Shown here piece by piece: positions 23,822-61,717 of a stretch of 64,000 bases of DNA. The position numbers and the translations under genes were made by a program. The notes beneath the pieces are model-generated. The model had not been told where the DNA came from, searched no databases, and saw nothing but the letters and a program-made list of their open reading frames with translations. Numbering within the stretch: the first letter of the stretch is position 1; the number at the start of each line of letters is the position of its first letter. This DNA comes from Candidatus Sumerlaeota bacterium. GTDB taxonomy: Bacteria; Sumerlaeota; Sumerlaeia; UBA8349. Location: NCBI GenBank assembly GCA_016931035.1, contig JAFGFN010000026.1:21235-85234 (forward strand), in the 5' to 3' direction.

Positions 23822-23852
23822 GAAGGATGAAGGATGAAATAGGAAGGATGAA
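23811..23852. repeat. 2 x 21-bp tandem direct repeat (ggatgaaRtaggaaggatgaa) spanning the carA stop codon
   Basis: The two copies are 20/21 identical. The first copy contains the carA TAG at 23819-23821. Confidence 0.7.
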
Positions 23853-24045: not shown

Positions 24046-24058
24046 AAAACGGAGAAGA

Positions 24059-43790: not shown

Positions 43791-44915
43791 GTGACGAAAG
43801 TGAAGATTCTCACCGTCGTCGGCGCGCGGCCCCAATTCATCAAGGCCGCCATGGTGAGCCGCGCCGTCGCCCGACACAACGCCGCCGCCCTCCCCACGGC
43901 CCCACCCGTAGTCGAGGAAATCGTCCACACGGGTCAGCACTACGATCACGGAATGAGCCAGGCCTTCTTCGACGAGATGGAGATCCCCGGTCCCGCCGTC
44001 AATCTCGGCGTCGGGTCGGGCACCCACGGCGAGACAACCGCCGCCATGCTCCGCGGCCTCGAGGCCGAGATCGTCGCGCGCCGTCCCGACTGGGTCCTCG
44101 TCTACGGCGACACGAATTCGACTCTCGCCGGCGCGCTGGCCGCCGCGAAACTCCACGTCCCCGTCGCGCACGTCGAGGCCGGGCTGCGTTCCTTCAACAA
44201 ACGAATGCCCGAGGAGATCAACCGTCTCGTCGCCGACCACGTCTCGACCCTTCTCTTCTGCCCCACCCGCGCGGCGGTCGAGAACCTCGCGAGCGAGGGG
44301 ATCGCCGACGGAGTTCACGCGGTGGGCGACGTGATGTACGACGCCGCGCTCGCCTTCGGAGACCTCGCCCGCCAACACAGCGACGTTCTCGATCGCCTCG
44401 GTCTCGCGCCGAAGGGCTACGCCCTCGCCACCTGTCACCGCGCCGAAAACACCGATAGCGGCGAACGCCTCGCCGCCATTCTCGACGGCCTGGGCCGCGT
44501 CGCCGAGTCCGTGCCGGTCGTTTTGCCGCTCCACCCTCGCACGCGCGAGCGGATCGAACGATTCGGGTTCGCGAAACGCGCCGAGCGTCTCCGCACCGTC
44601 GAGCCCGTCTCGTTTCTCGACATGATCCGGCTCGAGCAGGAGGCGCGCGCGATCCTCACGGACTCCGGCGGCGTTCAGAAGGAGGCCTACTTCCACGGCG
44701 TGCCGTGCGTCACGTTGCGCGACGAGACCGAATGGGTCGAGACTGTCGAGGCCGGATGGAACACCCTGGCGGGCGCCGACGCCGACGCGATCGCCCAGGC
44801 CGCGCGCGACGCCTCCCCCGGCCGCCCGATCGCCGACTACGGCGACGGCCACGCGGCGGACAAGATCCTCTCAATCCTTCTCTGCCCTTCCTCAAACCCC
44901 GAGGAAGAAACCTGA
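43791..44915 (+). CDS. wecB: UDP-N-acetylglucosamine 2-epimerase (non-hydrolysing)
   Basis: Contains the WecB motifs (VGARPQFIKAA and HVEAGLRS). GTG start at 43791 or 43800. Confidence 0.85.
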   Translation: MTKVKILTVVGARPQFIKAAMVSRAVARHNAAALPTAPPVVEEIVHTGQHYDHGMSQAFFDEMEIPGPAVNLGVGSGTHGETTAAMLRGLEAEIVARRPDWVLVYGDTNSTLAGALAAAKLHVPVAHVEAGLRSFNKRMPEEINRLVADHVSTLLFCPTRAAVENLASEGIADGVHAVGDVMYDAALAFGDLARQHSDVLDRLGLAPKGYALATCHRAENTDSGERLAAILDGLGRVAESVPVVLPLHPRTRERIERFGFAKRAERLRTVEPVSFLDMIRLEQEARAILTDSGGVQKEAYFHGVPCVTLRDETEWVETVEAGWNTLAGADADAIAQAARDASPGRPIADYGDGHAADKILSILLCPSSNPEEET

Positions 44916-44966
44916 GGCTTTTCCTGAATGCGGAGAATACCTCTTGCCGACGCCGATCTCTCGAGT

Positions 44967-45062
44967 TGTCGTTGACTCTGGCCAACTGAAGTTGGAACAA
45001 CAAACAAAGAACCCACACGGGCTACGCTTGTCCGTTTGTTGTCCCAACTTCAGTTGGCCAAC
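44967..45062. repeat. 96-bp palindromic repeat element, copy B
   Basis: Same 5' 44 nt as copy A (2 SNPs). Right arm ccgtttgttgtcccaacttcagttggcc is the near-perfect reverse complement of the left arm. Same orientation as copy A. Confidence 0.8.
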
Positions 45063-45101
45063 ACATCCGTCATTCCCGAGAATCCCGGAAGTGTCTTCAT
45101 C

Positions 45102-47012
45102 TCAAACGAACGGTCTACGGTTGTCGAGGAACTGGCGGCAGAAGCTGTTGAGGCAGAGGAAACCCCAGATCTTGCGGCCGAAACTCGGCTCGCTCGGAAG
45201 ACCCCGCCGGATCGCGTCGAAATCGAGAAACTCCCGCGCCGCCTGCGAGGGTTCGCCGAACGCCTTCTCGACGAACTCCTTGAGCGCGTCGCCGTACCAT
45301 TGCACCAGCGGGACCGGGAATCCCATCTTGTCCTTGCGCCCGAGGACGCTCGCGGGCAGGGTGTCGCCGAAGAAGAGTTTGGGCAGACGCTTGAGCTCGC
45401 CCCCCCTGAACTTCACGTTCGCCGGGATCGTCGCCACGAACTCGACCAGCGGATGGTCGAGGAACGGGGTGCGCGACTCGACGCCGTGCGCCATGCTCGT
45501 CCGGTCCTCCACTTGGAGCAGCGCGGGCAGGAGCGTGAGGAAGTCGAAGTGGAGCATGCTGTCGAAGTAGCATCGGCTCCCGATCTCGTTGGAGAAATAC
45601 ACGCGGCGAAACTCTTCGTACACGTCGTAGTCGCGCGGGAAAGCGTCCCACCGCACTTCGTCGCGCACCTCGGCGCTGCGGTCGATCAGGCGGAAGTAAC
45701 GGCGGTCGTAGTCGTCGAACATCCCGGCGCTGAAGAAGTGGCGCATCAGAGGCTCGTATCCGGCGAGCGACTGGAGATTCGGGATGATCGACTCATAGGT
45801 GACGATGAAACGCGGCGAATGGCTCTCGCCCGCCACCGCGCCTTTGAGGCACTGCTCGAAGTAAGCGATCAGGTATCGAACGTACCCGCCGAAGATTTCG
45901 TCCGCGCCCTGTCCCCCTAGGACGACCTTGCGTTTCCCTTTCACGTACTTCGAGACGACGTACTGAGGGAACGAGCCGGGCCCGGCGACCGGGAAGTCCA
46001 TGTGATAGATCAGGCGGTCGAACGCATCGACGAAGTCGTCGCTCGACACCGGGATCTCGCGCAGGTCGATCCCTTCGCGTCGCGCGACGTCGCGCGCGAA
46101 CCCGCTTTCGTCGAACCGTTCGCCGTATCCGCGAAAGACGCCGTGGAACGCCATGAAATCGTCGGCGCCCGTCGCGCGTCGGGCCAGGGCGGCGATGCCG
46201 CTCGAATCGATGCCGCCGCTCAGATAGCCGCTCACGGGAACGTCGCTCACGACGTGCGCGCGGATCGAGTCCTCCATGAGCTCGCGGCATCGCTCGACGA
46301 ACCACGCCTCGCCGTGCTCCATGTCGAGGTCGTACCGTACCTTCCAGTAGGTGTGTGACCGCGTCCCCTCGGAATCGACCGTCCGCCACGTAGCGGGCGC
46401 GACCTCCTCGATGTTCTCGAACAGGGTCTTGCCGCGCAGGCAGAACTGGAAGGTCAGATAATCGCGCAGTCCCGAGCGGTCGATCCGCACGTCGGGAAGG
46501 AACGAAAAGAGCGCCTTGATCTCGGAGGCGAAATAGAGCGTCTCGCCCGACCAGGCGACGTACAACGGCTTGATCCCGAAACGATCGCGCGCGAGGAAGA
46601 GCCGTCGGCGGCGGGCGTCCCAGATCGCGAAGGCGAACATCCCGCGCAGGTACTCGGGACAGGCCTCGCCCCACTCCATATAGGCCTTGAGGATCACCTC
46701 GGTGTCGGACTGCGTCCGAAAGCGGTGCTTGGATTCGAGGCGGGCGCGCAGCTCGCGAAAGTTGTAGATCTCGCCGTTGAAGACGATAGTGAGGTCGGCC
46801 TCGTCTTCGCGCATCGGTTGGCGCGCGCGTTCCGAGAGATCGAGAACGCTGAGCCGAACGTGGCCCATCCCGAGGGCGGCGTCGGGCGCGAGCCAGAGAC
46901 CTTCGTCGTCGGGTCCGCGGTGCTTCTGCAGGGCGTTCATCCGCTCGAGGCGTTCGCCCAGCCGGTCGATCGCCCCGCCTGACGGATTGAAGATTCCCGC
47001 GATCCCGCACAT
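45102..47012 (-). CDS. asnB: Asparagine synthetase B-type glutamine amidotransferase
   Basis: N-terminal MCGIAG nucleophile and the PP-loop SGGIDSS. Confidence 0.85.
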   Translation of the reverse strand: MCGIAGIFNPSGGAIDRLGERLERMNALQKHRGPDDEGLWLAPDAALGMGHVRLSVLDLSERARQPMREDEADLTIVFNGEIYNFRELRARLESKHRFRTQSDTEVILKAYMEWGEACPEYLRGMFAFAIWDARRRRLFLARDRFGIKPLYVAWSGETLYFASEIKALFSFLPDVRIDRSGLRDYLTFQFCLRGKTLFENIEEVAPATWRTVDSEGTRSHTYWKVRYDLDMEHGEAWFVERCRELMEDSIRAHVVSDVPVSGYLSGGIDSSGIAALARRATGADDFMAFHGVFRGYGERFDESGFARDVARREGIDLREIPVSSDDFVDAFDRLIYHMDFPVAGPGSFPQYVVSKYVKGKRKVVLGGQGADEIFGGYVRYLIAYFEQCLKGAVAGESHSPRFIVTYESIIPNLQSLAGYEPLMRHFFSAGMFDDYDRRYFRLIDRSAEVRDEVRWDAFPRDYDVYEEFRRVYFSNEIGSRCYFDSMLHFDFLTLLPALLQVEDRTSMAHGVESRTPFLDHPLVEFVATIPANVKFRGGELKRLPKLFFGDTLPASVLGRKDKMGFPVPLVQWYGDALKEFVEKAFGEPSQAAREFLDFDAIRRGLPSEPSFGRKIWGFLCLNSFCRQFLDNRRPFV

Positions 47013-48382: not shown

Positions 48383-49183
48383 ATGAAGTCCGGCCCTCTG
48401 TGTTTGCTCACCAAGCACCGCGCCATGTTGTGTCGAACAACGTGGAACGAGATCAAGGCGCGTTACGCCGGCTCGATTCTCGGGCTCGCCTGGCTCGTTT
48501 TCTATCCTCTCCTGTTCCTCGGAGTCTACTCGGTCTTCATCTACATCCTGATGGGAAAGCGCGCAGGCGATCTTTCCGATCCCGCCTTGATCGACCAGGT
48601 GCTTCTCGTTTTCTGCGGCCTGATTCCGTTCATCGGTTTCGCCGAAGGGTTGGCGGGCGGCGTGGTCTCGGTCACGCAGAACGCGAACCTGATCAAGAAC
48701 ACCCTGTTCCCCATCGAACTGGTCCCCGTCAAGGCGGTCCTCGTCGGGCAGTGCACCCAGGTGGTCGGTACGGCGATGCTGCTGGTGTGTCTGGCCGTCT
48801 TCGGCAAGTTGACGATCTGGGTTCTCGTTCTGCCGCTCGTCTGGCTGCTGCAAATCGCCCTGTCGGTAGGGGTGGCCTGGATTCTGTCGAGCCTCAACGT
48901 CTATTTCCGCGACCTGCAAAACATCGTCGGCGTCGTCACGTTGATGTTGATGTTGATCAGCCCGATCGCCTGGAAGGCGGTCGACATCCCGGCGAGCGTT
49001 CTGCCGTGGATGATGTTCAACCCCTTGTACTACGTCATCGTCGCGTGTCAGCAATGTCTGTTGCTCGGTCGTTTCCCCGACCCGATCCTTCTCGAAGTGC
49101 TCGGAGTTCTCGCCGTGCTCGTCTTCTTCGGCGGATACGCCTTCTTCCGCAGGATGAAGCGTGTGTTCGCCGACAACGTCTGA
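48383..49183 (+). CDS. wzm: ABC-2 type polysaccharide export permease
   Basis: 266 aa, 6 TM helices, ABC-2 family pattern. Confidence 0.8.
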   Translation: MKSGPLCLLTKHRAMLCRTTWNEIKARYAGSILGLAWLVFYPLLFLGVYSVFIYILMGKRAGDLSDPALIDQVLLVFCGLIPFIGFAEGLAGGVVSVTQNANLIKNTLFPIELVPVKAVLVGQCTQVVGTAMLLVCLAVFGKLTIWVLVLPLVWLLQIALSVGVAWILSSLNVYFRDLQNIVGVVTLMLMLISPIAWKAVDIPASVLPWMMFNPLYYVIVACQQCLLLGRFPDPILLEVLGVLAVLVFFGGYAFFRRMKRVFADNV

Positions 49184-49193
49184 AGGCGTCCAA

Positions 49194-51047
49194 ATGAACG
49201 ATTCGGCCATCCGCCTCAAAGAGCTCGGGAAGATGTACAAACTCTTCCGCCATCCGGCGGACAGGGTGTTCGACGCGTTCGGTCTCCGCCGCCGTCCGTT
49301 CGGACCCAAACTCGTCTTCCAGGAGTTCTGGGCGCTGCGCGGCATCGACCTGCGCGTGACCAAGGGGGAGAGAATCGGCATCATCGGCCAGAACGGCGCG
49401 GGCAAAAGCACCCTGCTCAAGATCGTCACCGGCGTCGCTGCGCCGACCGAAGGGAGCGTCGAGGTCTCGGGACAGATTCAGGCCTTGCTCGAACTCGGGA
49501 CCGGTTTCCACCCGGAATTCACGGGACGCGAGAACATCCGGGCGTCGTTGTCGCTCAACGAATTCTCCTCGTCCGAGATCCGCGAGATGGAGGAGGATAT
49601 CGTCGACTTCGCGGAACTCGGCGATTTCATCGACCACCCTCTCAAGACCTATTCGGCGGGGATGGCGGCCCGATTGGCTTTCTCGACCGCCTCGGCCATT
49701 CGGCCCGAAATCCTCATCATCGACGAGGTCCTGGGCGCGGGCGACGCCTACTTCGCGGGCAAATGCGTCGAACGGATGAAGCAACTCACCCACGAATCGG
49801 GCGCGACGGTCCTCTTCGTCAGCCACGACCTGAACAGCGTCCAGGCCCTGTGCGAGCGCGTCCTCTGGATTCATCGCGGCCAGGTGCATCGCGACGGCGC
49901 GCCGCTCGATACGATCCAGGACTACATGGCGATGGTGCGGCGCGACGAGGAAACGCGGCTCCGCGCGCGCGACCTGAGAGTCCTGAAGAAACAGGCCCTC
50001 TTCCTCGAACGGGACGAGGACGTTTACGAAAAGACCTTGTTCCACTTTGTTTGTCCCGGATCGCCTCCCCCGCCGCCGGGACAGCGCATCTACGGCCTGA
50101 CCCTCTCGGTCGACGAGCAGGAGGCCGCCCGAATCGCGGTCGGGAGCCCGATGGACAATTCGGCCGATCACATGAATTACCTCATGGACACTCCCGGCTA
50201 CATGGACTGGGGACCCGCCGCCAAGGATCGCAACAGTCGGCCCTATCGCGAGTACGGCGACTACAAGGGGCGCTACGGCCACGCCCCCTTCGAGTTCGCC
50301 GTGCCGCGCACTCTGTTGCGCGAGGGCGAGACGCAACGCCTTCAACTCGACATCGAAGCCTCCGTCACTCATGAGGGCATCGCCGTCGAGGCGTACAACG
50401 GCGAGGCCTATGTCCCGATCGGCCCCGTCGCTACGGGCGAAGGCGTGGCGACGCGCCTCGAGTTTTCGAGCGCCCTTCTCCGACCCGGAAAGCAAGCGCT
50501 CGGCGCCGCCGCGCCGTCCGGAGAAACCGCTCTTCTGTCCGCCGCCGAACGTCCGGCCGAGCACGCGCCTCAACAACCCGTCCGCCACGAATACGGCGCG
50601 GGAGGGGCGAAGATTCTCCAGGTGCGAATGCTCAACGCCCAGGGCGAGGACACGCGCGTCTTTCATCCCGACGAACCGATGCGGGTCGAGATCGAATTCC
50701 AAGCCGAGGCCGAGCTGGCCGATCCCGTCTTCGTGTTCTGCGCCTATCTGCCCGACGGCCGGTGCGCCACCCAGTGGATCGTCGATTCGCGGACAATGGG
50801 CTCGCCCCGCGTGCCGCCGGGCAAGGGGCGCGCGACGTTTCGGATCGACCGGCTTGTCTTGGGCAAGTCCGCCTACGTCGCCAGCGCGGCGATCTTCAAG
50901 TTCCTGCGTCCCGACGGGCGGGAACCCGAAAGCTATCACGTCCTCGACCGATGCATCCATTTCCAAGTGGTACAAGGCGTAGAACACGTTTACGAGAAAG
51001 GGTTGTGCGTGCAACCCTTCGAGGCGGAGATCGATCTTGGACGCTGA
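49194..51047 (+). CDS. wzt: Polysaccharide ABC exporter ATP-binding protein with a C-terminal carbohydrate-binding extension
   Basis: Nucleotide-binding domain (GQNGAGKST, LSGG-like, DEVLGAGD) in residues 1-250. About 180-aa unique linker. C-terminal 150-aa Wzt_C-like beta-sandwich (KILQVRMLNAQGE...). Confidence 0.85.
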   Translation: MNDSAIRLKELGKMYKLFRHPADRVFDAFGLRRRPFGPKLVFQEFWALRGIDLRVTKGERIGIIGQNGAGKSTLLKIVTGVAAPTEGSVEVSGQIQALLELGTGFHPEFTGRENIRASLSLNEFSSSEIREMEEDIVDFAELGDFIDHPLKTYSAGMAARLAFSTASAIRPEILIIDEVLGAGDAYFAGKCVERMKQLTHESGATVLFVSHDLNSVQALCERVLWIHRGQVHRDGAPLDTIQDYMAMVRRDEETRLRARDLRVLKKQALFLERDEDVYEKTLFHFVCPGSPPPPPGQRIYGLTLSVDEQEAARIAVGSPMDNSADHMNYLMDTPGYMDWGPAAKDRNSRPYREYGDYKGRYGHAPFEFAVPRTLLREGETQRLQLDIEASVTHEGIAVEAYNGEAYVPIGPVATGEGVATRLEFSSALLRPGKQALGAAAPSGETALLSAAERPAEHAPQQPVRHEYGAGGAKILQVRMLNAQGEDTRVFHPDEPMRVEIEFQAEAELADPVFVFCAYLPDGRCATQWIVDSRTMGSPRVPPGKGRATFRIDRLVLGKSAYVASAAIFKFLRPDGREPESYHVLDRCIHFQVVQGVEHVYEKGLCVQPFEAEIDLGR

Positions 51048-54000
51048 CACCCAATACTTCGATCAGCCCGAAATCTGGGGACAGGCGCCGGAACCGTACC
51101 AGCGCCAGGTCCTGGCGGACGTTCTCAGTCTGTTGCCCGACGACGTCGAGAGCGTCCTGGACGCCGGCTGCGGCGACGGCTACATCGCGAACGCCCTGCC
51201 CGAACGCCTTCGCGTCGTCGGACTCGACGTGAGCGAAACGGCCCTCCAACACGTCCGCCGGGAAACGCGGGTCGGGTCGATCGCGGACCTTCCGTTCCCC
51301 GACGGATCGTTCGATCTCGCGATGGCCAACGACGTGGTCGAACATCTGTCGAAAGAGGATTACCGGCGGGCCCTGGCCGAACTGCGGCGCGTCTCTCGGA
51401 AGTACATCCTTCTCACGGTTCCCCTCAACGAACAACTCGAAGCGAACGAAGCCCGGTGCGCCGATTGCGGGGCGATCTACCACGTGAACCATCATCGGCG
51501 ATCTTTCTCCGAACGGTCCCTCGATCGTCTGTTCGGCGCCAGGTTCAAAGTCGTCGAAACCCGGCTGTCGGGAGACGTGACCGGAAGACCGCGCGACCCG
51601 ACCGCCGCGCTTCGTCGGAACCTGGGTTTCTATCACACATGGGAAAAGGCTATGTGCCCCGAGTGCGGGTCGAAACGCCAAATCCAGCCACCCACTTCTT
51701 CCACCCTGCGCCGGACGCTCGACGCTCTGCGCACGCGACGTTATGCGGAGACTCTCGTGCAACGCGGCCCGTGGAACGATCGTTCGGAAATCGTCGCGCT
51801 GTTCTCGCGTCGCCCGGGGCGGGTCCCTCTCGAAGACCTCTCTCCCGAAACGTTCTCCGTCCCCGCGCTCCGTGTGAATCTCGCCAATGCTCTCCAACGC
51901 GCCGAACCTGGGTTCACGCCGGGCGCGATCCGGCCTCGCTTTCTAACCCGGGGACCGTGGGAAGCGACCCCCAACGGTCTCCAAGCCCGGACGGGCGACG
52001 AACCGTCGCTCGTCCTCATCCGCTTTCCCGTCGAGCCCCGAGAAGGCGATCGACTCATCGTCGAAAGCGAGGGACGCGGTCGGTTGATCGTCTCCTCCCT
52101 CGATCCTCTCCTCGGGCGCGCGTTCGCTCTTCAGGACAAGCGCTACACGCAGGAGGACGCCCGGTTTCTGGAGATTCCCGTTTGCGAGACCTGGTGGCCC
52201 GACCAGGCGGGTTGGGGACTGGAGATTGTCGCCCAAGACGCTCTCGTGCTTCATTCCGTCGAGCTCCGGCCCGCCTCGGACGCCGCTCGGCGAACACTCA
52301 ACGCCGTCCGTCTCGAACCGGGACACCACATCGTGCGACGAACGATCGACGGCGTGGTGCGTTCGTGGGGACTCATGACGGAACACGCAGGATGGCGCCC
52401 GCTGCCGGATCTCGAAGCGTTCTTCTCGAAATCTCGCCCCAAACCCGAATCCCACGACGCCGATTGGGCTGAGTTCGCCGAGACGATCCGGGAGGCGGAC
52501 GACCGACGCCGCCGCGAGATCGATCTCCTCCGACGCGGCTCCGAGTTGACCGAGACGAAGCGCGCGAGGGCCGAAGAAGCGTATTCTCAAGCGCAAGAAC
52601 GGGCCTCGGCGGTGGAGACGGCGCGCGACGAGATGCAGGCGCTTCGAACCCAAGTCGAGACGCTCCGCGCCGCGCTGACTCGCACCGAGGAGGCGCGAGA
52701 CCGGGCCGAGAAGAGCTATATCGCCGCCTGCGAAGAACATCGGGCCTTGAGCGCCGAAACGGAATCGCTGCGCAAGACTCTGGCTCAAACCGAGGAGGGA
52801 TGGAGCCGGGCCGAGAAAACCTACATCGCCGCCTGCGAAGAACACCAGGCGCTTTGCGCCGAGACCCAGTCGTTGCGCGACGGTCTCGCGCGGACGGAAG
52901 AGGCGCGGAATCGAGCGGAGAAGAGCTATATCGCCGCGTGCGAAGAACATCAGGCGATGCGTCGCGGGACGGAGTCTTTGCGCAACGCCCTCACCGAGGC
53001 CGAGAACGCGCTCCGGCGCGCGCAGGAGGACCACGAGACGGACCTGAAGGAGAAAGAGCGTCTCCGCGACGAAGCGCGAGAACTCCGGACGGCCCTGTCT
53101 CAGGCCCAGGAGACCCGCCGGCGCGCCGAAGAATCGTGCGCGGCACTGCGCGACGAGAAGAACGCGCTCCACGACCAGCTCGCGAACGTGCGCGACGCGC
53201 TCGTTCAGGTGGAACAGGCGCGCGACCGCGCCGAGAACGCTCGCGTCGCCCTGTCCGAAGAACGGCTGGCGCTTCGAGTCGACATGGACGCCCTGAGACG
53301 TTCTCTCGCTCAGACCGAGAAAGAACGTCTCAGGATCGAAAGCGCGTCGGCCGCGCTGGAACGTCGAGTGATGAAACTCGAGCAGGCGCTGACCGATGCG
53401 GAACAGGAAATCGCGACCTCGAAACAGGAAGTCGCCTCTCTGCACGATGAGACCGTCCGCGCCGAGGTAGAGATCGACAAGACGCGCAGGCAGCGCGACA
53501 AGGCGGAGAACGCCTGTGTCGTCCTGCGAAAATCCCACGAAGACCTCGAGAAGCGCCTCGCGGCCCTAACCGAAGAATGTCGCTCGATGCGAGGCGTGCG
53601 GGGCGGGACGCGCGAGATTCTCTACGCCGTCAAGAAATGGATCGTCGGGCACCCTCCCGATTCGCCAGACGAGACGTATCCCGCGCGCTGGAAGTCGTTG
53701 CCCGCCGCCCTCGCCGACGGCCGCTCGCCCCGGGTCCTCGTTCTGTCCCACATGTTCCCGCATCCCGATCAACCCGCGCTCGGCTCCTTCATCCTCGAGC
53801 AGGTCCGGGCGCTCCGTCGCGACGCGGGAGTCGACGCCCGCGTCCTTTCGGGCCGACCTTACTGGATGAACCTCTCGCGCCATCCCCGAACGCTGTGGCT
53901 CCGAAACCTCGACTATTCGCGCAAGGCGCTCCCCAACGTCCGCTGGCGTGAACTCGACGGCGTCCCGGTCATGTACGTCCCCTACCGAGTCGTCGCCCGT

Positions 54001-54960
54001 CCGTGGACGCACGGCTGGTCGTATCGCAACGCCATGATGCGCGTGCTCGACCGGGTGCGAGCGGAATTCCGTTTCGACCTGGTCCACGCCCACACCGCCT
54101 ATCTCGACGGGACCGCCGGTCTGGCCATCGCTCGGCGCTTCGGAGTTCCGTTCCTTATCACCGAGCACACCGGCCCGTTCTCTCATTTACTTCGCGGTCC
54201 CATCATGACCCGCCAAACGAAACGCGCGCTCAACGGCGCCGACCGGACGATCGCCGTGTCGAACGACCTGAAACGAAACATGGGCGAAGTCATGAGTCCG
54301 GAGAAGGGCGAAAAGATCGTCGTCCTGCCCAACGGCGTCGACACGGAACTCTTCCGTCTGCCCGACGAACACCGGCCCGATCCGCGAGCGCCGCGCATCT
54401 TCTTCGTCGGCGGACTCGGACCCGTCAAGAACCTGCGTCTTCTCCTTAGGGCGTTCCAGATTATCGCGGGAGAGACTCCCGATGCGACACTGAACCTGAT
54501 CGGGGGCGAGGAAAAGGCCGGCAAGAAGAAGGTTCTCGACGATCTCGCCGGGGAACTCGGCCTGGTCAACCAAGTGCGATTCCTCGGACCCAAGACGCGC
54601 GAGGAAGTGGCGGAGCTCCTTCGCGAGGAGGCGGATCTCCTAGTCCTGTCCAGTCGGACGGAGACTTTCGGTTGCGTTCTTGTCGAGGCGATGGCGTGCG
54701 GCAAACCGGTCGTCGCCACGCGGTGCGGAGGACCCGAAGACATCGTGGCCGACAACCAAGTCGGACGGTTGTGCGAGAACGACAACGTCGAGGACCTGGC
54801 GCGGGCGCTTCGCGAGACGATCGAGAACCTTCCGCGATTCTCGCCGCAAGTCATCCGCCAATTCGCGGTCGAACGCTACGGATACGACGCCCTCACCGAG
54901 AACCTGCGACGGCTCTATGCGGAGCTCGCCGGGGCTGGAAACGGGCTACGCCGGACATGA
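51037..54960 (+). CDS. Tri-domain protein: SAM-dependent methyltransferase, extended coiled coil, glycosyltransferase family 4
   Basis: TTG start overlaps the wzt stop. MT motif I VLDAGCGDGY with Zn-ribbon-like CADC...CPEC. Residues about 480-850 form a heptad-periodic, 35-aa repeat coiled coil. Residues about 900-1307 form a GT4 domain ending in an EX7E region (ETFGCVLVEAMACGKPVVAT). Confidence 0.8.
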   Translation: MDADTQYFDQPEIWGQAPEPYQRQVLADVLSLLPDDVESVLDAGCGDGYIANALPERLRVVGLDVSETALQHVRRETRVGSIADLPFPDGSFDLAMANDVVEHLSKEDYRRALAELRRVSRKYILLTVPLNEQLEANEARCADCGAIYHVNHHRRSFSERSLDRLFGARFKVVETRLSGDVTGRPRDPTAALRRNLGFYHTWEKAMCPECGSKRQIQPPTSSTLRRTLDALRTRRYAETLVQRGPWNDRSEIVALFSRRPGRVPLEDLSPETFSVPALRVNLANALQRAEPGFTPGAIRPRFLTRGPWEATPNGLQARTGDEPSLVLIRFPVEPREGDRLIVESEGRGRLIVSSLDPLLGRAFALQDKRYTQEDARFLEIPVCETWWPDQAGWGLEIVAQDALVLHSVELRPASDAARRTLNAVRLEPGHHIVRRTIDGVVRSWGLMTEHAGWRPLPDLEAFFSKSRPKPESHDADWAEFAETIREADDRRRREIDLLRRGSELTETKRARAEEAYSQAQERASAVETARDEMQALRTQVETLRAALTRTEEARDRAEKSYIAACEEHRALSAETESLRKTLAQTEEGWSRAEKTYIAACEEHQALCAETQSLRDGLARTEEARNRAEKSYIAACEEHQAMRRGTESLRNALTEAENALRRAQEDHETDLKEKERLRDEARELRTALSQAQETRRRAEESCAALRDEKNALHDQLANVRDALVQVEQARDRAENARVALSEERLALRVDMDALRRSLAQTEKERLRIESASAALERRVMKLEQALTDAEQEIATSKQEVASLHDETVRAEVEIDKTRRQRDKAENACVVLRKSHEDLEKRLAALTEECRSMRGVRGGTREILYAVKKWIVGHPPDSPDETYPARWKSLPAALADGRSPRVLVLSHMFPHPDQPALGSFILEQVRALRRDAGVDARVLSGRPYWMNLSRHPRTLWLRNLDYSRKALPNVRWRELDGVPVMYVPYRVVARPWTHGWSYRNAMMRVLDRVRAEFRFDLVHAHTAYLDGTAGLAIARRFGVPFLITEHTGPFSHLLRGPIMTRQTKRALNGADRTIAVSNDLKRNMGEVMSPEKGEKIVVLPNGVDTELFRLPDEHRPDPRAPRIFFVGGLGPVKNLRLLLRAFQIIAGETPDATLNLIGGEEKAGKKKVLDDLAGELGLVNQVRFLGPKTREEVAELLREEADLLVLSSRTETFGCVLVEAMACGKPVVATRCGGPEDIVADNQVGRLCENDNVEDLARALRETIENLPRFSPQVIRQFAVERYGYDALTENLRRLYAELAGAGNGLRRT
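52684..52998 (+). repeat. 3 x 105-bp near-identical in-frame tandem repeats encoding 35-aa coiled-coil units (RAEKSYIAACEEH...)
   Basis: Unit starts at 52684, 52789 and 52894. At least four more diverged 35-aa units follow. Confidence 0.8.
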
Positions 54961-54981: not shown

Positions 54982-57534
54982 TCATTCCGAGAGGGGCGTC
55001 GTTCGCCACTCGATGTCGCCGCCTTCGAGCGACGGCGGCGACGGACCGGGATACAGCCCCAGTCCCGTGATACAAACGCAACGCTGCTCGACGCGGCGCG
55101 TGGCCAGCGTCACGGTAGTCGATTCCTCGCTCGCCCACGGCGCGAGCGGAACCCAGTCCCGGACGGCCTTCGCCGACCGGTAGGCAATCTCGAATCGCCG
55201 TCTCCCGATCTCCGCTTCCAAAACGTTCTCCTCGGGGCCGTTCGAGTAGACTTCCAGGAAGAGTCCGCCGCTCGACGATCCGAACAATTCGTTCAGGTTC
55301 CGAGAGGAGAGCCGCACCTTCGCACCGCGAGTCAAGAGCATCGTCCGATTGTTCTCCACGAAATCCGAGGAAGAAACGCCGGTCGAGGGCGCCTCCGAAG
55401 CCGGACGCCATCCCTCCGGATCGAACGCTTCGGTCGCCGGAACGAATCGCGCGACCGCGTTCGGGCTCAACCCGTAGAGCCGTATGACGTAGTCGAAGCT
55501 CGATGTCCGTAGCGTGTCGCGCCTCAGACTCCGCCTCTGCGATACGCCGTCGGCCATTGGACACATGAATGCCGTTGTCTGGAAAAGCGGCGTCATGTGC
55601 CGTCGCAAAACGGCCCCCCACGGGAGGCTCAAAGACAACGTCTCCGACGAATAGGCGGATTCGCAAGCCAGGATTCCGAAACGACGATCGGGCGCAAGCT
55701 CGGAATACAGCGGCTCGACCCGGCCCTGTGGAAGCGGCGCGGGATTGAAGTAACGCAGCGGTATCGCAAGAATCGGGGACACACCGCTTGCCGAACACGC
55801 GCGGCTCGACTCCCCCGCCGCGCGGTAGCGATTCCAGTAGAGGGCGCGATGACGAACGCCCCAGTTTCCCGCCAGGAGTCCAACGCAAACCGCCGCCGCG
55901 ATCCACTTCGCCGCGCTCCTCACGCGGCCGGGTCGGGTTCGCAGCAGTTCCGACGGCGCATACAACAAAGCGACGAAGTAAAGCGTGTAGAGCGCGACGT
56001 AGTTGCGGCGCTCGAAATGGTGTCCGTATTGAAGAATGAGGAGATACGTCAGTGGAAACCACAGAACGGCCAGGATATCCCATCGGCCCGCCTTTCCCCG
56101 GAACGCCCGCGCGAGAAAAAGCAACCACCCGCTCACGACGCACAACGCGCCGATCCCAAAGAGAATCGGTCCCTCGGCGTGCGCCAGCATCCGGAGCGCT
56201 TCCGCGATCTCTCGTTTCTGGTTCGCGGCGGGGTTCGCGTGGACGAGGAGCATCGAGAAGTATCCCGGGCCAAAGAAAGCGTAGAGAAGGTTCGCCGCGG
56301 TGAACACGGCGCCGATCGCGAAACACAGCCATCCGAGCCGCAAAGCCTGACGCCCATGCCGCCGCGACAGAAACAGCAACCCGATGGAAAGGGCGATCGA
56401 GAGAACCGAGAGCGTCACGACGAGATTCCATCGCGCCGCTTCGCTCAGGTTCGTGACGAGCGCGTACCCTTGCGACACATCGGCCTTGTACCAGAAGAGC
56501 GATGGAGCGTTCGGCAGGACGGCGAAGACGCCGAGTCCCACGAGAATCGCTAGTGTCGACAGGCTGCGCCGCAAGACGACGAGCGCGGCAAGACCCTCGA
56601 GAATCGCCAGGACGATCAGCAAGAACATCGTCGTCGGGTAAGCCAGCTGCGACAACGCGAGAAGCGCGCCTCCCGCCGCCGCCCATCCGGCCCCGCCGGA
56701 ACGGCCCGTCGATTCGGACGCCCACAGATACGACGCCAAACCGCCCACGAGCAGGCACGCTTGCACAGTCACCGGAAACCCGGACGGCAGATAACAGGAG
56801 TGCATGAGAGAGAACGTCGGAAGCGCCGCCGCGACGGCGCCCGCGGCCGCCCCGAAACGTCGGGCGAAAAGAACGCCGAAGATCGCCGCCGTGAGCAAAC
56901 CGCAAATCAGATTCGCGCTCACCTGGATCGTCTCGCGCATCGGCAGACCGAGCAGGACCGCAATCGGAGGCAGCGGCACGTGAAACAGAGGCTTGGTGTG
57001 GACGGCCGCCAGGGTCCTGAAGTACGCCCTCGCGGCCTCCGAGCGACGCATCCCATCGAGTCTCTCGACGGAACTGCCGAACGTCGCCGCGGCATTCCGC
57101 CGGAGATCGTCGGCGAGAAGGGGCGAGAGGCTCCCGCGCAACGCAAGACTCAGATACGCCGTCGCCAGCGTGTTCTGCTGCATGTAGAGATTCTCGTCGT
57201 ACATGAAGAAGCCGCTCTTCACGTACTTCCCATGACACGCGGCGAACACGACCAGAAGAACGACGATCCCGATCGCGAGCGACCGAAGCGACGGACCCGC
57301 GCCGCCGTCCCGTCCGTCGTCGTTCGACGCCGCGTCCAAGTGAAACGCCGTCGCCTGTTCTTCCAGGACGGAAAGATCCAAGAACCGGGATTGCGCGACG
57401 TAGCGCGGGCCCGTCTTGGTGCGGACGAACAGCCGCACCAGAATCGCCTTGAGCGCACCCGAGAATCCCGGGACCCATCCGAACGCGATGAGAGCCGATC
57501 GAAAAGCAACGAAACGCGTCGGAGTCATGCGCAT
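54982..57534 (-). CDS. Large polytopic membrane protein, GT-C-like (YDE motif in first loop), with C-terminal soluble domain
   Basis: Start ATG at 57534 (MRMTPTRF) overlaps the upstream gene by 10 nt. About 14 TM helices. The upstream Arg-rich extension of the ORF and the alternative-frame ORF 54893..57478 are rejected. Confidence 0.5.
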   Translation of the reverse strand: MRMTPTRFVAFRSALIAFGWVPGFSGALKAILVRLFVRTKTGPRYVAQSRFLDLSVLEEQATAFHLDAASNDDGRDGGAGPSLRSLAIGIVVLLVVFAACHGKYVKSGFFMYDENLYMQQNTLATAYLSLALRGSLSPLLADDLRRNAAATFGSSVERLDGMRRSEAARAYFRTLAAVHTKPLFHVPLPPIAVLLGLPMRETIQVSANLICGLLTAAIFGVLFARRFGAAAGAVAAALPTFSLMHSCYLPSGFPVTVQACLLVGGLASYLWASESTGRSGGAGWAAAGGALLALSQLAYPTTMFLLIVLAILEGLAALVVLRRSLSTLAILVGLGVFAVLPNAPSLFWYKADVSQGYALVTNLSEAARWNLVVTLSVLSIALSIGLLFLSRRHGRQALRLGWLCFAIGAVFTAANLLYAFFGPGYFSMLLVHANPAANQKREIAEALRMLAHAEGPILFGIGALCVVSGWLLFLARAFRGKAGRWDILAVLWFPLTYLLILQYGHHFERRNYVALYTLYFVALLYAPSELLRTRPGRVRSAAKWIAAAVCVGLLAGNWGVRHRALYWNRYRAAGESSRACSASGVSPILAIPLRYFNPAPLPQGRVEPLYSELAPDRRFGILACESAYSSETLSLSLPWGAVLRRHMTPLFQTTAFMCPMADGVSQRRSLRRDTLRTSSFDYVIRLYGLSPNAVARFVPATEAFDPEGWRPASEAPSTGVSSSDFVENNRTMLLTRGAKVRLSSRNLNELFGSSSGGLFLEVYSNGPEENVLEAEIGRRRFEIAYRSAKAVRDWVPLAPWASEESTTVTLATRRVEQRCVCITGLGLYPGPSPPSLEGGDIEWRTTPLSE

Positions 57535-58475
57535 GGCTCGACGCCCTCCCGCACGAGATGGGTCAGCAGGTAGTCCGTCGCCATCGGAATCGAATAACGG
57601 TCGTCCATCCAAAGCGGATTGACGATGATATTCTCCTCCAAACCGCGCTCGATCCGTTCGAGCAGGGGGCTCCGCAATCTCGCGAAGGCCGAGGGATAGA
57701 GAAACTGCGTGCGACGACTCGTGTCCGCGTATTCGAACAGTCCGTTCGGCGCCACGCGTTCGCGCAGCCACTCGTCGCATCGCCGCGCCGCTTCCCACGC
57801 GGCTTCCGATCCGGAAGCGGCGGCGTATTGGGTCACAAGGCTCATCGTGATCGAGGCGTAGCCGACGTCCGGGCCGTCGTATTCGAGAAAGCAACCGGTC
57901 GGAAGTTGGTGCGCGATCAGAAGACCGATCTGTTCTTCCGCCGCTCGAGCGAACGTCGCGTCGTCCGCGATGCGCGAGGTGTTCCAGAGCGCCGCGCACG
58001 AGGCGGCGAGCTGGTTCGCCACGTCGGCCCGTGGGTGTCGCGCGAGCCAGCGGGCCGTCGGGCGCAAGTCGATGCCGAAGTCGTCTCCCGCCAGAAGCAT
58101 CGCCGCCGTGATCGCTTGGGCCGACATCGCCGTGGCGCAGAAGCTCCGTTCCCACGGATAGACTTCGTCCACCGAGCCGTCGGAATGGCGCTGGGAACTC
58201 CAGAACCGCGCGGCCGCCCGAATCTGCGGCGCAAAGAGATCGCGCGCACTCGGCAGGCACTGTCCGAGACGCGCAAGGTAGAGCGCACACTCCTGATAGC
58301 GAGCGTTGCAGGTGTCGTGGATGCCGTAGTGCCACCAGGAGCGGTCGAAACAACCGTGCGTCGCCGACTCCGGGTCCATGTCGAGGAAACCAAGGAAACG
58401 CTCACACAGCGCGCGGCCGAAACGGAGGAACTCGCTCGACCGATGCGGAGGCGGTGGGGTGAGATCGATCGTCAT
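57525..58475 (-). CDS. Hypothetical protein (possibly alpha/alpha-toroid fold)
   Basis: Start MTIDLTPP at 58475, ATGA-overlapping the upstream gene. Trp/aromatic-rich. Confidence 0.4.
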   Translation of the reverse strand: MTIDLTPPPPHRSSEFLRFGRALCERFLGFLDMDPESATHGCFDRSWWHYGIHDTCNARYQECALYLARLGQCLPSARDLFAPQIRAAARFWSSQRHSDGSVDEVYPWERSFCATAMSAQAITAAMLLAGDDFGIDLRPTARWLARHPRADVANQLAASCAALWNTSRIADDATFARAAEEQIGLLIAHQLPTGCFLEYDGPDVGYASITMSLVTQYAAASGSEAAWEAARRCDEWLRERVAPNGLFEYADTSRRTQFLYPSAFARLRSPLLERIERGLEENIIVNPLWMDDRYSIPMATDYLLTHLVREGVEPCA

Positions 58476-59320
58476 GAGGCTTTTTGCCCACTCTTGCGCG
58501 CCGCCAGGGTCAGTGTCAGGTTGAGATCCACCGAGGGAATCCATCCGAACGGGAAGAACCGCCGCCGCTCGACCTGGAAGGAGCGGCGCAGCTCTCGAAC
58601 CACGCCTCGCGCCGAGTTGCAGTGCTCGATCGCGATCGCCTGCGCGTAGTCCAGACCGTATCGCTTGGAAAGCGTCCGTTGCGAAGTGAATCGTCGCCCC
58701 AGATTCCAGGCCCATCCTCCTTCGCAGGGAAGTCCGACAAGAAACAAACCGTCATCCGCGAGCACGCGCCGGACTTCCGCGAGTACGTCGCCGAGGAAGA
58801 AGAGATGCTCCAGGGAATAGATCGAGATAATCGTGCCGAATGCGCCGTCGCGAAAGGGAAGGCGGCACGCGTCGGCCTGCATCACTCGGGCTCTCGGAAA
58901 TCGCCGCCTCGCCGATCGTAAGGAATCGAGATTCACGTCCACGCCCACGACGCTCTCGCGTTCAGAGAAGTAAGAGAAGTGAGCGCCCCCTCCGCACCCC
59001 AGGTCGAGAGTCCACGCTTCGGGAGAAGGGGGATACTGCGCCACTCGCTTATGGGCCGAGTGGTGAATCCAGCGGAAAACACCGTTGCCCAATTCGAAGT
59101 ACTCGTCGAGCGACTCGGCGGCCACGCTCTTCCACTTCTGGCAGTGCGGGTTGTCCGCGCCGCGAGTATCGACTCGGGGTTCCGACGGCATCATGACGAG
59201 CACGCCGTCCGTCGATTCGAATTCGCGCCCGCAGGTTTCGCAGCGAGTGTTTTCTCCTTCCATGCGCGCCGCCGTCCGGCAATCGGGACACGCGAGCAGA
59301 CTCTCGAACGGCGCTTTCAT
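58472..59320 (-). CDS. Class I SAM-dependent methyltransferase with an N-terminal Zn-ribbon
   Basis: CPDC...CETC zinc ribbon, then LDLGCGGG (motif I) and VDVNLD. Confidence 0.75.
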   Translation of the reverse strand: MKAPFESLLACPDCRTAARMEGENTRCETCGREFESTDGVLVMMPSEPRVDTRGADNPHCQKWKSVAAESLDEYFELGNGVFRWIHHSAHKRVAQYPPSPEAWTLDLGCGGGAHFSYFSERESVVGVDVNLDSLRSARRRFPRARVMQADACRLPFRDGAFGTIISIYSLEHLFFLGDVLAEVRRVLADDGLFLVGLPCEGGWAWNLGRRFTSQRTLSKRYGLDYAQAIAIEHCNSARGVVRELRRSFQVERRRFFPFGWIPSVDLNLTLTLAARKSGQKAS

Positions 59321-60258
59321 CGCGTCGAGTCCTCCTCCGGGCGAGAAGCGGGAGGGCGTCTTCGCGCCAGCTGGCCCAACTCGAGCCGCACCTGGGCGAT
59401 CTGCTCGGCCAAGAGACCGAAGAAGAAGACGAACACGCCCGACAAGATGAGCGCGAGAGACGAGCCAAACACACCTCCCCTAAGAACGATCTGAATCACG
59501 CCCCAGACGCTCCCGACGACGAGCAGGAAAAGCCCCGTGGGCGTGAAGATGCGTTGCGGATTGAAGAGCATTGTCAAACGCAGCAGAATGTGAAGGAAGC
59601 GGAGTCCGTCGCGCAGCGGACGAATCCCGCTGCGCCCCGTGCGGCGGCGTCCGATCGTCTTCAGAGACACGTATCGCACTTCGCGTCCCAGCTTGAGAAA
59701 CGCCATCGTCACCGTCGTCGGATAGGAGTAGTGCCGGGGGAAAAGATGAACGACTTCCAGGAGCGGCTCGCGCCGGACCGCGCGGAATCCCGAAGTGAGG
59801 TCCGCGATCTTCTCCTGCGATAGGAATTCCGCGAATCGGATCAGTCCGCGATTGCCGAACGAACGCAGACGCGAGACGTTCGCTCCGGGCGCGCGAGCCC
59901 CGACCACAAGGTCGCACTCGCCGCAGTGCTCGAGGAGGGCGGGAATCTCTTCGGCCGGGTGCTGCCCGTCGGCGTCGAGCATCACGATCCATTCGCCCCG
60001 TGCCGCCTCGCACCCGGTGCGGACGGCGGCCCCGTTGCCTCGGTTCTTCGAATGCCGCACCACGCGCGCGCCCGCTTCGCGCGCCGCGTCCGCCGTGCCG
60101 TCGGTCGAACCGTCGTCCACGACGACAATCTCGTTCGCTATGTTCAGCGCCGCGATGCGGCGGACGACTTCGCCCACGCTTTCCGCCTCGTTGAAGGCGG
60201 GGATCACCACGCTCACGTCCGGCCGGGTCGCACTCGTCGGGTCGAGACTCGTCATCAT
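59317..60258 (-). CDS. Polyprenyl-phosphate glycosyltransferase (GT2, GtrB/ArnC/DPM1-like)
   Basis: VSVVIPAFNE, DDGSTDGT and DADGQH motifs plus two C-terminal TM helices. Confidence 0.8.
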   Translation of the reverse strand: MMTSLDPTSATRPDVSVVIPAFNEAESVGEVVRRIAALNIANEIVVVDDGSTDGTADAAREAGARVVRHSKNRGNGAAVRTGCEAARGEWIVMLDADGQHPAEEIPALLEHCGECDLVVGARAPGANVSRLRSFGNRGLIRFAEFLSQEKIADLTSGFRAVRREPLLEVVHLFPRHYSYPTTVTMAFLKLGREVRYVSLKTIGRRRTGRSGIRPLRDGLRFLHILLRLTMLFNPQRIFTPTGLFLLVVGSVWGVIQIVLRGGVFGSSLALILSGVFVFFFGLLAEQIAQVRLELGQLARRRPPASRPEEDSTR

Positions 60259-61700
60259 TCTCCTCGCGCGGAAAAGTCGAGCACCTGGACGCCCGCGAGC
60301 GTGAAGCGCTTCACGTCGTCGAAGGTGCGCACACGCCGCAGTGTCCTCCAGAAATACCGTGGGCGCAAGTAGAAGCGACGATACGCCCGGCGAACCGCCT
60401 TCTCCAAATACTCCGAAGAGACGTGCGTATAGTGCTCGTTGTAGAGCGCACCGACGTGGAGATTGGCGAGATCCGTCGCGGACCCGTCGCCGATCTCGGG
60501 ATGCCGCGCGGCGACCTCATCGAACAGGGGCGTCCCCGGATACGGTGTGCACAGGCCGAACGTCACCGTCGTCGGATCGATTTCGAGGACGAAGCGGACC
60601 GTCGTCTCGATCGTCTCCTCGGTTTCGCCCGGCATCCCCAACATCACGTGGGCGTGAGTCTCCACGCCCGCCTGCCGCGCCCAACCGAACACCTCGCGCG
60701 TCTGCTCGATGCGCGTCCCCTTGCGGCTGCGGTCGAGAATCTCCTGCACCCCGGATTCCACTCCGAACTTGACCATGTGGCATCCCGATCGCTTCATCGT
60801 CTCGAGCGTCTCGAGATCGAGCGTGTTGACCCGCGCGTTGCAGACCCAGGTCAGGTCGAGATGCGACTCTATCAACTTCCGGCAGAACTCTTGCGTGCGA
60901 GAACGGCTGAAAGTGAACGTCTCGTCGCGGAAGAAGATCTCGCGATACCCCTTCGCGCTCAGCTGCGCGAGCTCGGCGATCACGTTGTCCACGGACCGCG
61001 CCCGAAGACGCGGACCGTAGAAGAACGGCGCCGTGCAGAAGCTGCACAGTCCCGGACAGCCGCGCGAAGTCGAGAGCGTCATATACGGCATCCGCCGCAC
61101 CACGGGGTTGAAGTAGTGCACGCCGCGCGGAAGCATGTCCACGTCCAGAAAGGGAAGATCGTCGAGATTCTCGATGAACGGGTAGTCGGGGTTCAGAATC
61201 GTCCGGCCGTCTTCGCGATATCCGATCCCGGGCACGCCGCGCCAGTCCTCGCCTCGATCGAGCGCCAGCGCCACGTCGCGCACGACGTATTCGGGCTCGC
61301 GCCGAACGACGACGTCTACCCCCTCCTTGGCGAGCGTCGCCTCGGGCAGGAAGGTCGGATGCGAACCGAAAAGGAAGGTCTGCAGGCTCGCGTTGACTCC
61401 CTTCATGCTCCTCAGGGTCTCGGCGTCCTCGTTCACGCTCATCGTGGACGTGGACATGACGACCACGTCGAATTCCGAAGCGCGAGCCACTACGCGAGTC
61501 AGAGGAACCCGTTCGCCGAGCGCGTCCAGGAACTCGACGTCCAGTCCCGCCCGCTTGAGCACCGTCGCGACCCCGAGCAACGCATAGGGCGGGACGCTGG
61601 CCCCACCGATGCGCTTCCCCTTGCACCAACAGCCGTAGAGCACGTCGCGCACAACGTTCTTCGTGAACGCACTGGAAGGATTGAGAACGAGGAAACGCAT
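60255..61700 (-). CDS. B12-binding domain radical SAM protein (class B)
   Basis: N-terminal cobalamin-binding Rossmann fold followed by CPGLCSFC (CxxxCxxC). Start MRFLVLN at 61700. The upstream Arg-rich part of the ORF is rejected. Confidence 0.85.
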   Translation of the reverse strand: MRFLVLNPSSAFTKNVVRDVLYGCWCKGKRIGGASVPPYALLGVATVLKRAGLDVEFLDALGERVPLTRVVARASEFDVVVMSTSTMSVNEDAETLRSMKGVNASLQTFLFGSHPTFLPEATLAKEGVDVVVRREPEYVVRDVALALDRGEDWRGVPGIGYREDGRTILNPDYPFIENLDDLPFLDVDMLPRGVHYFNPVVRRMPYMTLSTSRGCPGLCSFCTAPFFYGPRLRARSVDNVIAELAQLSAKGYREIFFRDETFTFSRSRTQEFCRKLIESHLDLTWVCNARVNTLDLETLETMKRSGCHMVKFGVESGVQEILDRSRKGTRIEQTREVFGWARQAGVETHAHVMLGMPGETEETIETTVRFVLEIDPTTVTFGLCTPYPGTPLFDEVAARHPEIGDGSATDLANLHVGALYNEHYTHVSSEYLEKAVRRAYRRFYLRPRYFWRTLRRVRTFDDVKRFTLAGVQVLDFSARGE

Positions 61701-61717
61701 GACGGAGATCTGCCCTT

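Follow-up and report, generated by a model that had tools for sequence, protein, structure and literature searches.

An old five-heptad repeat in the predicted coiled-coil stalk of a probable glycan assembly protein from Candidatus Sumerlaeota

Coiled-coil rulers are the accepted explanation of modal chain length in O-antigens that depend on an ATP-binding cassette (ABC) transporter, and the evidence for such rulers was obtained by lengthening and shortening the coils of a few enterobacterial proteins through engineered insertions and deletions. Here we describe a protein from an uncultured phylum that resembles these rulers in architecture and genomic context. It is encoded at positions 51037-54960 (plus strand) of a 64,000-nucleotide (nt) stretch of a Candidatus Sumerlaeota contig (JAFGFN010000026.1), hereafter the window, to which all coordinates refer unless another locus is named. 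The open reading frame (ORF) encodes 1307 amino acids (aa) and is 100% identical to MBN1866082.1, a protein from a 96-kb contig of Candidatus Sumerlaeota bacterium that is annotated as 'glycosyltransferase'. From the N-terminus it consists of a methyltransferase domain, a beta-sandwich-like domain, a long predicted coiled coil and a glycosyltransferase (GT) domain of family GT4. The coil contains three tandem 105-bp units, which had been proposed from the sequence alone, in what we call the original prediction, to be a recently duplicated and potentially length-variable part of what might be a ruler like WbdD.

The coil of WbdD is a trimeric structure of ~20 nm in which engineered insertions raise and truncations lower the modal chain length, and the C-terminus of WbdD binds the membrane (PMC5082667). 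More generally, coiled-coil proteins with terminator domains, whether or not they are fused to GTs, are considered a hallmark of the ABC-transporter-dependent pathway (PMC11231755). WbdD of E. coli O9a and K. pneumoniae O3 is, like MBN1866082.1, composed of an N-terminal methyltransferase-containing module, an extended coil and a membrane-proximal C-terminal region, the last of these a proposed feature in MBN1866082.1, and it likewise works with Wzm and a Wzt that bears a C-terminal carbohydrate-binding module (PMC5082667, PMC11231755, PMC3482155). WbdD differs in its additional kinase, in its separate polymerase WbdA and in the length of its coil, ~20 nm as opposed to the ~56 nm predicted for MBN1866082.1, in which a beta-sandwich takes the place of the kinase and the GT4 is fused. 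No sequence relationship was detected between WbdD and the methyltransferase of the window, which places the latter outside the WbdD sequence family. The relation to WbdD is one of architecture and pathway, that is, of functional class, and to this extent the proposed likeness stands: it is carried by the coil architecture and by the gene context wzm - wzt(Wzt_C) - fusion gene, and not by sequence.

Two further described proteins resemble MBN1866082.1. WbbB of K. pneumoniae O12 and Raoultella terrigena combines an N-terminal terminator, a middle coil and one or more C-terminal GTs in one polypeptide (summarised in PMC11231755). Its terminator is a glycosyltransferase for beta-linked 3-deoxy-D-manno-oct-2-ulosonic acid (beta-Kdo), and it has two polymerising GT modules compared to the single GT4 of MBN1866082.1. 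ORF6 of K. pneumoniae O7 consists of a methyltransferase, a kinase, a carbohydrate-binding/Ig-like module, a coil and two GT2 modules (PMC11231755). With its N-terminal methyltransferase, an Ig-like beta domain just before the coil and C-terminal GTs it is the closest characterised architecture. Some ORF6 orthologues have the GT part and others lack it (PMC11231755), and the same is true of the family of the window protein (P0018, P0015). In contrast to ORF6 with its kinase and two GT2 modules, MBN1866082.1 has one GT4, and no kinase-like domain was seen in its AlphaFold2 (AF2) model.

The repeat array and the coiled coil

In the whole window, Tandem Repeats Finder (TRF) detected a single long-period tandem array, located at 52684-52956 (period 105, 2.6 copies, 75% matches, score 301). 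The three units, each of 105 bp and 35 aa or five heptads (together 52684-52998, plus strand; aa 550-654), start at 52684, 52789 and 52894, exactly where they had been predicted, and all are in frame with ORF 51037-54960. Their translations are, in order, TEEARDRAEKSYIAACEEHRALSAETESLRKTLAQ, TEEGWSRAEKTYIAACEEHQALCAETQSLRDGLAR and TEEARNRAEKSYIAACEEHQAMRRGTESLRNALTE, and they share the core motif RAEK(S/T)YIAACEEH(R/Q)A. The original prediction had further described the units as almost identical at the DNA level and their duplications as recent, and this part had to be abandoned. In pairwise comparison and in register, the units are only 70-73% identical in DNA and 63-71% in protein sequence, and the longest exact run that is common to any two of them measures 20 nt. 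Synonymous divergence (dS, Nei-Gojobori) between the units is saturated at 1.06-1.88, with a nonsynonymous divergence (dN) of 0.15-0.22 and a dN/dS of ~0.1-0.2. Near-identical, recent units are excluded on three counts: pairwise identity, dS and exact-match length. Similarity is unevenly distributed along the unit, as the 5′ part (first 66 nt) is 76-83% identical and the 3′ part (last 39 nt) 56-64%. Fifteen consecutive residues are near-invariant in the three units despite the synonymous divergence, and these include the solvent-exposed b, c, f and g positions.

The duplications that gave rise to the three units are thus old, and the protein sequence has been held by purifying selection. Since the duplications are old and exact identity does not exceed 20 nt, the array is not a slippage-prone one and represents a poor substrate for slipped-strand or homologous exchange; near-identical units with long exact homology, by which contingency loci of the variable-number tandem repeat (VNTR) type are recognised, are absent. 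Collapse or expansion of the units during assembly, a concern that had been raised along with the prediction, is ruled out because the copies differ at ~28% of their positions, i.e. at more than one in four. The array is an old, probably stable and selectively kept part of the stalk and most likely neither a hot spot nor a switch.

The three units do not stand alone. Directly ahead of them lies a weakly similar unit in the same phase (52579-52683, plus strand; aa 515-549), with 23-31% aa identity to the three units, and it also appears in the stacked alignment. Downstream, four diverged units keep the 35-aa phase (52999-53418, plus strand; starting at aa 655, 690, 725 and 760), as revealed by the in-register identity matrix, autocorrelation and stacking. 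The autocorrelation of the MBN1866082.1 sequence gave z = 15.4 at lag 35 and z = 12.3 at lag 70, and the stack consensus of the units reads EAR.RAE....AA.EE..ALR.....LR.ALAQTE. Diverged units following the array had been anticipated, and four of them are confirmed here. The third of the motifs quoted in their support, KAENACVVLRKSH, is real (aa 819) but out of the 35-residue phase, with an offset from unit 1 of 263 residues, which is no multiple of 7 or 35. The out-of-phase motif copy at this place was read from the sequence as RDKAENACVVLRKSH (53485-53529, plus strand; aa 817-831). Identity among the three units (63-71%) exceeds their identity to the repeat units of P0002, the lineage closest to MBN1866082.1 (56% identity), which is ~40% by eye. 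Their triplication therefore postdates the split from the P0002 lineage, yet is far from recent.

The array is embedded in a predicted continuous alpha-helix and coiled coil (52456-53589, plus strand; aa 474-851) that is supported by a single-sequence AF2 model of aa 440-900, by the heptad register and by a spectral test. In the model, residues 35-412 of this segment form one predicted helix of 378 residues that would measure ~56 nm if fully extended. The hydrophobicity spectrum of aa 470-850 has its maximum exactly at a period of 3.5 (power 240.1; next peak 76.6). The power of 247.7 at this period was reached by none of 5000 shuffled sequences (shuffle maximum 87.2), and no shuffle reached the period-3.5 power of aa 655-851 alone either. 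The best a/d register is identical in all 28-residue windows starting between aa 512 and 834, with aa 722 as the sole exception, and extends over ~48 heptads; along the sequence it stays the same from aa ~512 to 848. Pro is absent between aa 471 and 860, and the residues LIVMFYW occupy 47-50% of a/d positions compared to 6% elsewhere, an ~8-fold enrichment. The region thereby shows the 3.5 periodicity, the continuous a/d register and the lack of helix breakers of a canonical heptad coiled coil. Also, the predicted integer number of heptads per unit was borne out, and the five heptads of a 35-aa unit correspond to 5.2 nm of coiled coil, in agreement with the ~5 nm estimated before. Gly residues occur at aa 588, 616 and 644, at different unit positions each, and no Gly/Pro turn is conserved. 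A trimerisation motif known from Kammerer, 'R-h-x-x-h-E', was tried on RAEKSY and did not fit, with Y instead of E at position 6.

Stalk length in the family

A word-indexed search identified 15 proteins sharing the methyltransferase-coil-GT4 layout, with lengths of 899-1307 aa and 36-56% identity to MBN1866082.1. An exhaustive HMMER search with a profile of the N-terminal module (N-module) returned 976 cluster representatives at E<=1e-30, and ~55 of them carry the full methyltransferase and beta-sandwich module of 465 positions. Spacer length was measured between two hidden Markov model (HMM) anchors, one in the N-module and the other in the post-coil/GT4 module. Its values in the family spread near-continuously between 15 and 388 aa, and MBN1866082.1 has the longest spacer sampled (388 aa). 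Essentially all length variation of the family is found in the coil, and two members (P0013 and P0014) have essentially no coil. Moderately related proteins, here those with 74-87% identity in the aligned spacer segment including ~45 pre-coil residues, differ in the spacer by 7, 21 and 28 residues (P0005, P0006 and P0015) or by 28 residues (P0011 and P0012). A 12-residue gap in P0004 is the exception to heptad multiples.

An HMM of the unit built from the window repeats lacked the sensitivity to count units in distant homologues, which were therefore compared by autocorrelation and phase stacking. As in MBN1866082.1 itself, the strongest autocorrelation falls at lag 35 in P0003 (z 8.1), P0008 (z 8.7) and P0025 (z 7.5); in P0002 this lag ranks second. 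P0003 and P0008 (36-47% identical to MBN1866082.1, BLASTP) as well as P0025 also repeat the motif R..AE.AY every 35 residues. Judging from these sequence comparisons, the 35-residue super-repeat is ancient and recurs in distant homologues. A different repeat was observed in P0018, a protein of 791 aa with methyltransferase and coil only, where a period of 24 residues (autocorrelation z 18.8) comprises at least 8 copies of ELQNA.AE.E.LRERV..GE.A.V. As 24 residues are no heptad multiple, the stalks of some relatives are built on another periodicity.

Copy-number variation was found in the sister lineage. The P0002 gene contains a tandem repeat of 168 bp (56 aa, 8 heptads), and its 90% identity cluster comprises full-length proteins of two sizes, three of 1206 aa and two of 1262 aa. 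Four genes retrieved from this lineage differ from each other by 4-12 substitutions per 3.6 kb (at least 99.7% identity) and by exactly one 168-bp unit, which defines a 2-copy and a 3-copy allele. Within the lineage the units are 88-95% identical at the DNA level (units 2 and 3: 95%). In the 2-copy allele the first unit combines units 1 and 2 of the 3-copy allele into a chimera, with the junction in a 13-nt shared run, ATGGAGTCGCTCG, and the third unit of the 3-copy allele has substitutions of its own. The two alleles are located on four distinct haplotype contigs from different assemblies. The microhomology junction, the unique substitutions and the four haplotype contigs rule out an assembly artefact, and four distinct haplotypes from different assemblies signify a genuine copy-number polymorphism.

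Heptad-quantised change of coil length hence occurs in the family, but not demonstrably in the window array. The idea that gain and loss of units would alter the coil without breaking its register finds a real counterpart in the 168-bp change of the P0002 lineage; it probably does not extend to the window array, old and poorly suited to exchange as it is. Scans of metagenome contigs and genome contigs with the protein found no close relatives of the window fusion gene, and its own 90% cluster has a single member. A genome-contig scan with the N-module alignment gave a full N-module match at one locus only (L004) and partial matches at two others (L005 and L006), the rest being mostly unrelated methyltransferases.

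In the literature searched we found no report of a natural copy-number polymorphism in a ruler; the nearest analogue is the heptad VNTR (poly-psi) of NeuO, the polysialic acid O-acetyltransferase of E. coli K1 (PMC3046976). NeuO also modifies a polysaccharide, and natural variation in its repeat number adds or removes heptads and tunes activity (PMC3046976). It differs from the family described here in that its VNTR is a perfect 7-nt repeat subject to high-frequency slippage and on/off phase variation, and in that no coiled coil is formed by its heptads, which show disorder in the crystal (PMC3046976). The units in the window family, in contrast, are 105-168 bp long, diverged and part of a predicted coiled coil, and their changes are rare events.

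Domains and gene neighbourhood

The methyltransferase domain (51037-51816, plus strand; aa 1-260) is assigned to the class I S-adenosylmethionine (SAM)-dependent enzymes by Pfam and PDB matches at aa ~24-170, and its SAM motif I, DAGCGDG at aa 42, is intact. Two CxxC pairs, C141/C144 (51457-51468) and C207/C210 (51655-51666), are invariant in all 12 aligned family members. The four Cys residues belong to insertions of the methyltransferase fold and are probably the ligands of a structural zinc site; CxxC...CxxC cysteines of this kind are unusual for small-molecule or sugar methyltransferases. The following domain (51844-52401, plus strand; aa ~270-455) is all-beta and sandwich-like according to the AF2 secondary structure and ends in a conserved SWG motif.

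Directly after the coil, family comparison and AF2 revealed a motif RG(V/I)(R/W)GGxRE with a short amphipathic helix, TREILYAVKKWIVG (53590-53652, plus strand; aa 852-872). Of the 18 family proteins tested, 14 have the motif, among them proteins without a GT domain such as the coil-only P0018, where a post-coil RGxxG motif is situated at the very C-terminus. The AF2 helix spans aa 857-870 and has a hydrophobic moment of 1.01. By analogy with the C-terminus of WbdD, motif and helix are a candidate membrane-proximal element that may serve as anchor or partner-recruitment site. The C-terminal GT4 domain (53719-54936, plus strand; aa ~900-1300), of the GT-B fold and a retaining-type family, was recognised by Pfam (Glyco_transf_4 7e-24, Glycos_transf_1 5e-37) and by PDB matches to BshA, PimA and MshA (1e-17 to 1e-20), and carries the EX7E motif at aa 1209.

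The two genes directly upstream on the same strand encode a Wzm-like ABC-2 permease (48383-49183; Pfam ABC2_membrane 1e-11, NCBIfam galactan_ABC_perm Wzm/RfbD 7.9e-07) and a Wzt-like ABC ATPase (49161-51047; Pfam ABC_tran 4.5e-20), and the stop codon of wzt overlaps the start of the fusion gene. The Wzt-like protein has a C-terminal carbohydrate-binding module at the level of domain presence (Wzt_C 1.8e-15, aa 476-606). Four homologous loci (L001, L002, L003 and L085) show the same gene order, wzm - wzt(Wzt_C) - fusion gene.

The wider polysaccharide cluster encodes a ligase-like Wzy_C protein with TPR repeats, an initiating Bac_transf enzyme and GT2 and GT4 enzymes. Its sugar genes comprise a UDP-N-acetylglucosamine (UDP-GlcNAc) 2-epimerase, a DegT aminotransferase and a GFO/IDH/MocA-hexapeptide acyltransferase fusion, and two AsnB-like amidotransferases, a second methyltransferase and a B12-binding radical SAM enzyme are also encoded. 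The genes for the epimerase, the aminotransferase, the acyltransferase fusion, the amidotransferases and the radical SAM enzyme are found at 35788-38548, 43791-47012 and 60255-63658. As far as can be judged from these gene assignments, the set suggests a sugar of the 2,3-diacetamido-uronic acid (amide) type. The P0008 locus (L003) has a largely overlapping set that lacks only the epimerase and the second AsnB-like gene.

On the opposite strand, an ORF of ~850 aa (54982-57534, minus strand) that matches no Pfam family but has at least 8 hydrophobic segments lies within a mechanically called ORF at 54982-58353, of which the first ~270 codons lack a coding-type GC content at third codon positions. 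The ~850-aa ORF separates the fusion gene from a small methyltransferase gene (58472-59320) that is directly adjacent to the fusion gene in the sister loci L001, L084 and L086, and may be a lineage-specific membrane component of the pathway. In the P0006 locus (L002 8001-12382, in a 5.4-Mb genome) the GT4 domain is cut off at 983 aa, a DDE transposase follows directly and genes for IS110-type and Mu-type transposases lie upstream, so that the P0006 gene appears, from sequence, to be disrupted by an insertion sequence. Elsewhere in the window, an AAGGATG tandem repeat (23809-23852; period 7 with 6.3 copies, also period 21 with 2.1 copies, 95%) overlaps the stop codon at the 3′ end of a carA-like gene (22637-23821), upstream of a histidine-phosphatase gene (23990-24700).

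Possible functions of the stalk

With some confidence, we regard the three units as the best-preserved copies of an ancient five-heptad super-repeat in the ~56-nm stalk of an ABC-transporter-dependent glycan assembly protein that probably acts as a WbdD-like ruler. Several features of this class are present in the window, namely a glycan cluster with wzm and wzt, a Wzt with a C-terminal carbohydrate-binding module and an extended coil between the methyltransferase/beta-sandwich module and the GT4. By analogy, MBN1866082.1 would form a parallel homo-oligomer with its C-terminal GT4 and short amphipathic helix at the membrane, where the undecaprenyl-linked glycan would grow. The stalk would keep the N-terminal methyltransferase and beta-sandwich at a fixed distance of ~56 nm from the membrane-proximal GT4. 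A methyl cap would then be added only to chains that extend as far as the methyltransferase, and the carbohydrate-binding module of Wzt would recognise the capped end for export. Stalk length would evolve by gain and loss of whole heptad-multiple units, so that the register is never broken. From the analogous systems we infer the oligomeric state, the orientation and a terminator role for the methyltransferase, and from the experiments on WbdD and WbbB (PMC5082667, PMC11231755) that glycan length depends on the length of the coil.

Several observations weigh against a ruler of this simple form. Polar or aromatic residues (R/W, Y, H, T) occupy the a positions of the three units, which renders the oligomer type uncertain. 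In the AF2 monomer the predicted local distance difference test (pLDDT) score dips precisely at the midpoint of the helix (aa ~640-670) and the predicted template modelling (pTM) score is 0.45, and both values would agree with a hairpin that folds back in the model. Non-core positions in RAEKSYIAACEEH are strongly conserved, which suggests a function in addition to spacing. Finally, one GT4 by itself is unlikely to make up the whole polymerase, except if the glycan is a homopolymer or further GTs from the cluster are brought in.

Four other explanations were weighed. The coil could be an oligomerisation or scaffold stalk only, which tethers or dimerises the enzymes or recruits GTs while its length drifts neutrally. 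The near-continuous spread of spacers from 15 to 388 aa would fit neutral drift, and since P0013 and P0014 are essentially without coil, the enzyme pair can do without a long one. On the other hand, the heptad register is kept over ~48 heptads, indels between related proteins are, apart from the 12-residue gap in P0004, mostly heptad multiples, the units are under purifying selection (dN/dS ~0.1-0.2), and WbdD and WbbB provide a precedent in the same pathway context (PMC5082667, PMC11231755). We therefore consider a mere scaffold unlikely.

The super-repeat could also form a periodic binding surface, comparable to the tropomyosin period, for the growing glycan or for partner enzymes, and the stalk would then be a track or scaffold. 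Each unit would then present a conserved site R-x-x-A-E-x-x-Y...C/L.... In favour, the near-invariance of 15 consecutive residues extends to the exposed positions in the face of synonymous divergence, and R..AE.AY is spaced by 35 residues in P0003, P0008 and P0025. However, the later units of MBN1866082.1 have lost most of the motif, and family members with short coils carry one or two copies of it or none, which makes such a surface, taken as the explanation of the stalk, quite improbable.

An even smaller chance is given to a hypervariable array of the contingency type, in which frequent slippage or recombination would switch glycan length from strain to strain in the Candidatus Sumerlaeota host. 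The units are exact heptad multiples and unit gain or loss does occur in the P0002 lineage, where the units are 88-95% identical in DNA. Those of the window, in contrast, are 70-73% identical with saturated dS and a longest exact match of 20 nt, and the metagenome and genome scans gave no relatives displaying variation at the window array. Least probable of all is an intramolecular antiparallel hairpin of ~28 nm that would bring the methyltransferase beside the GT4 and pair the repeats with the downstream diverged units: the pLDDT minimum at the helix midpoint, the low pTM and the Ala-rich d positions, which are compatible with antiparallel packing, speak for it, but there is no conserved Gly/Pro turn, a one-sided insertion of 56 aa as in the P0002 lineage would re-pair the entire hairpin while being neutral in a parallel in-register oligomer, and AF2 monomer runs often fold homo-oligomeric coils back on themselves.

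We thus return to the stalk as a glycan ruler. What is new here is the fusion type, the longest stalk in the family, the ancient five-heptad super-repeat and the natural copy-number polymorphism of units in the family. The ruler architecture is thereby extended to a methyltransferase/beta-sandwich/coil/GT4 fusion in an uncultured phylum, and the predicted stalk of MBN1866082.1 has nearly three times the length of the WbdD coil. For the family, the results mean that stalk length changes in nature by heptad-quantised steps, even between near-identical gene copies, and the ruler model predicts that the length of an allele matches the length of the glycan. The spacers of 15-388 aa offer a natural series of lengths for the ruler model outside the Enterobacteriaceae. 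More tentatively, the family as a whole may be a natural modular glycan ruler in which whole-unit gain and loss retunes polysaccharide chain length and the surface motif of the units is possibly a periodic docking site, a proposal that we put forward as possible rather than probable. If true, the insertions and deletions engineered into WbdD would here have their first counterpart in nature.

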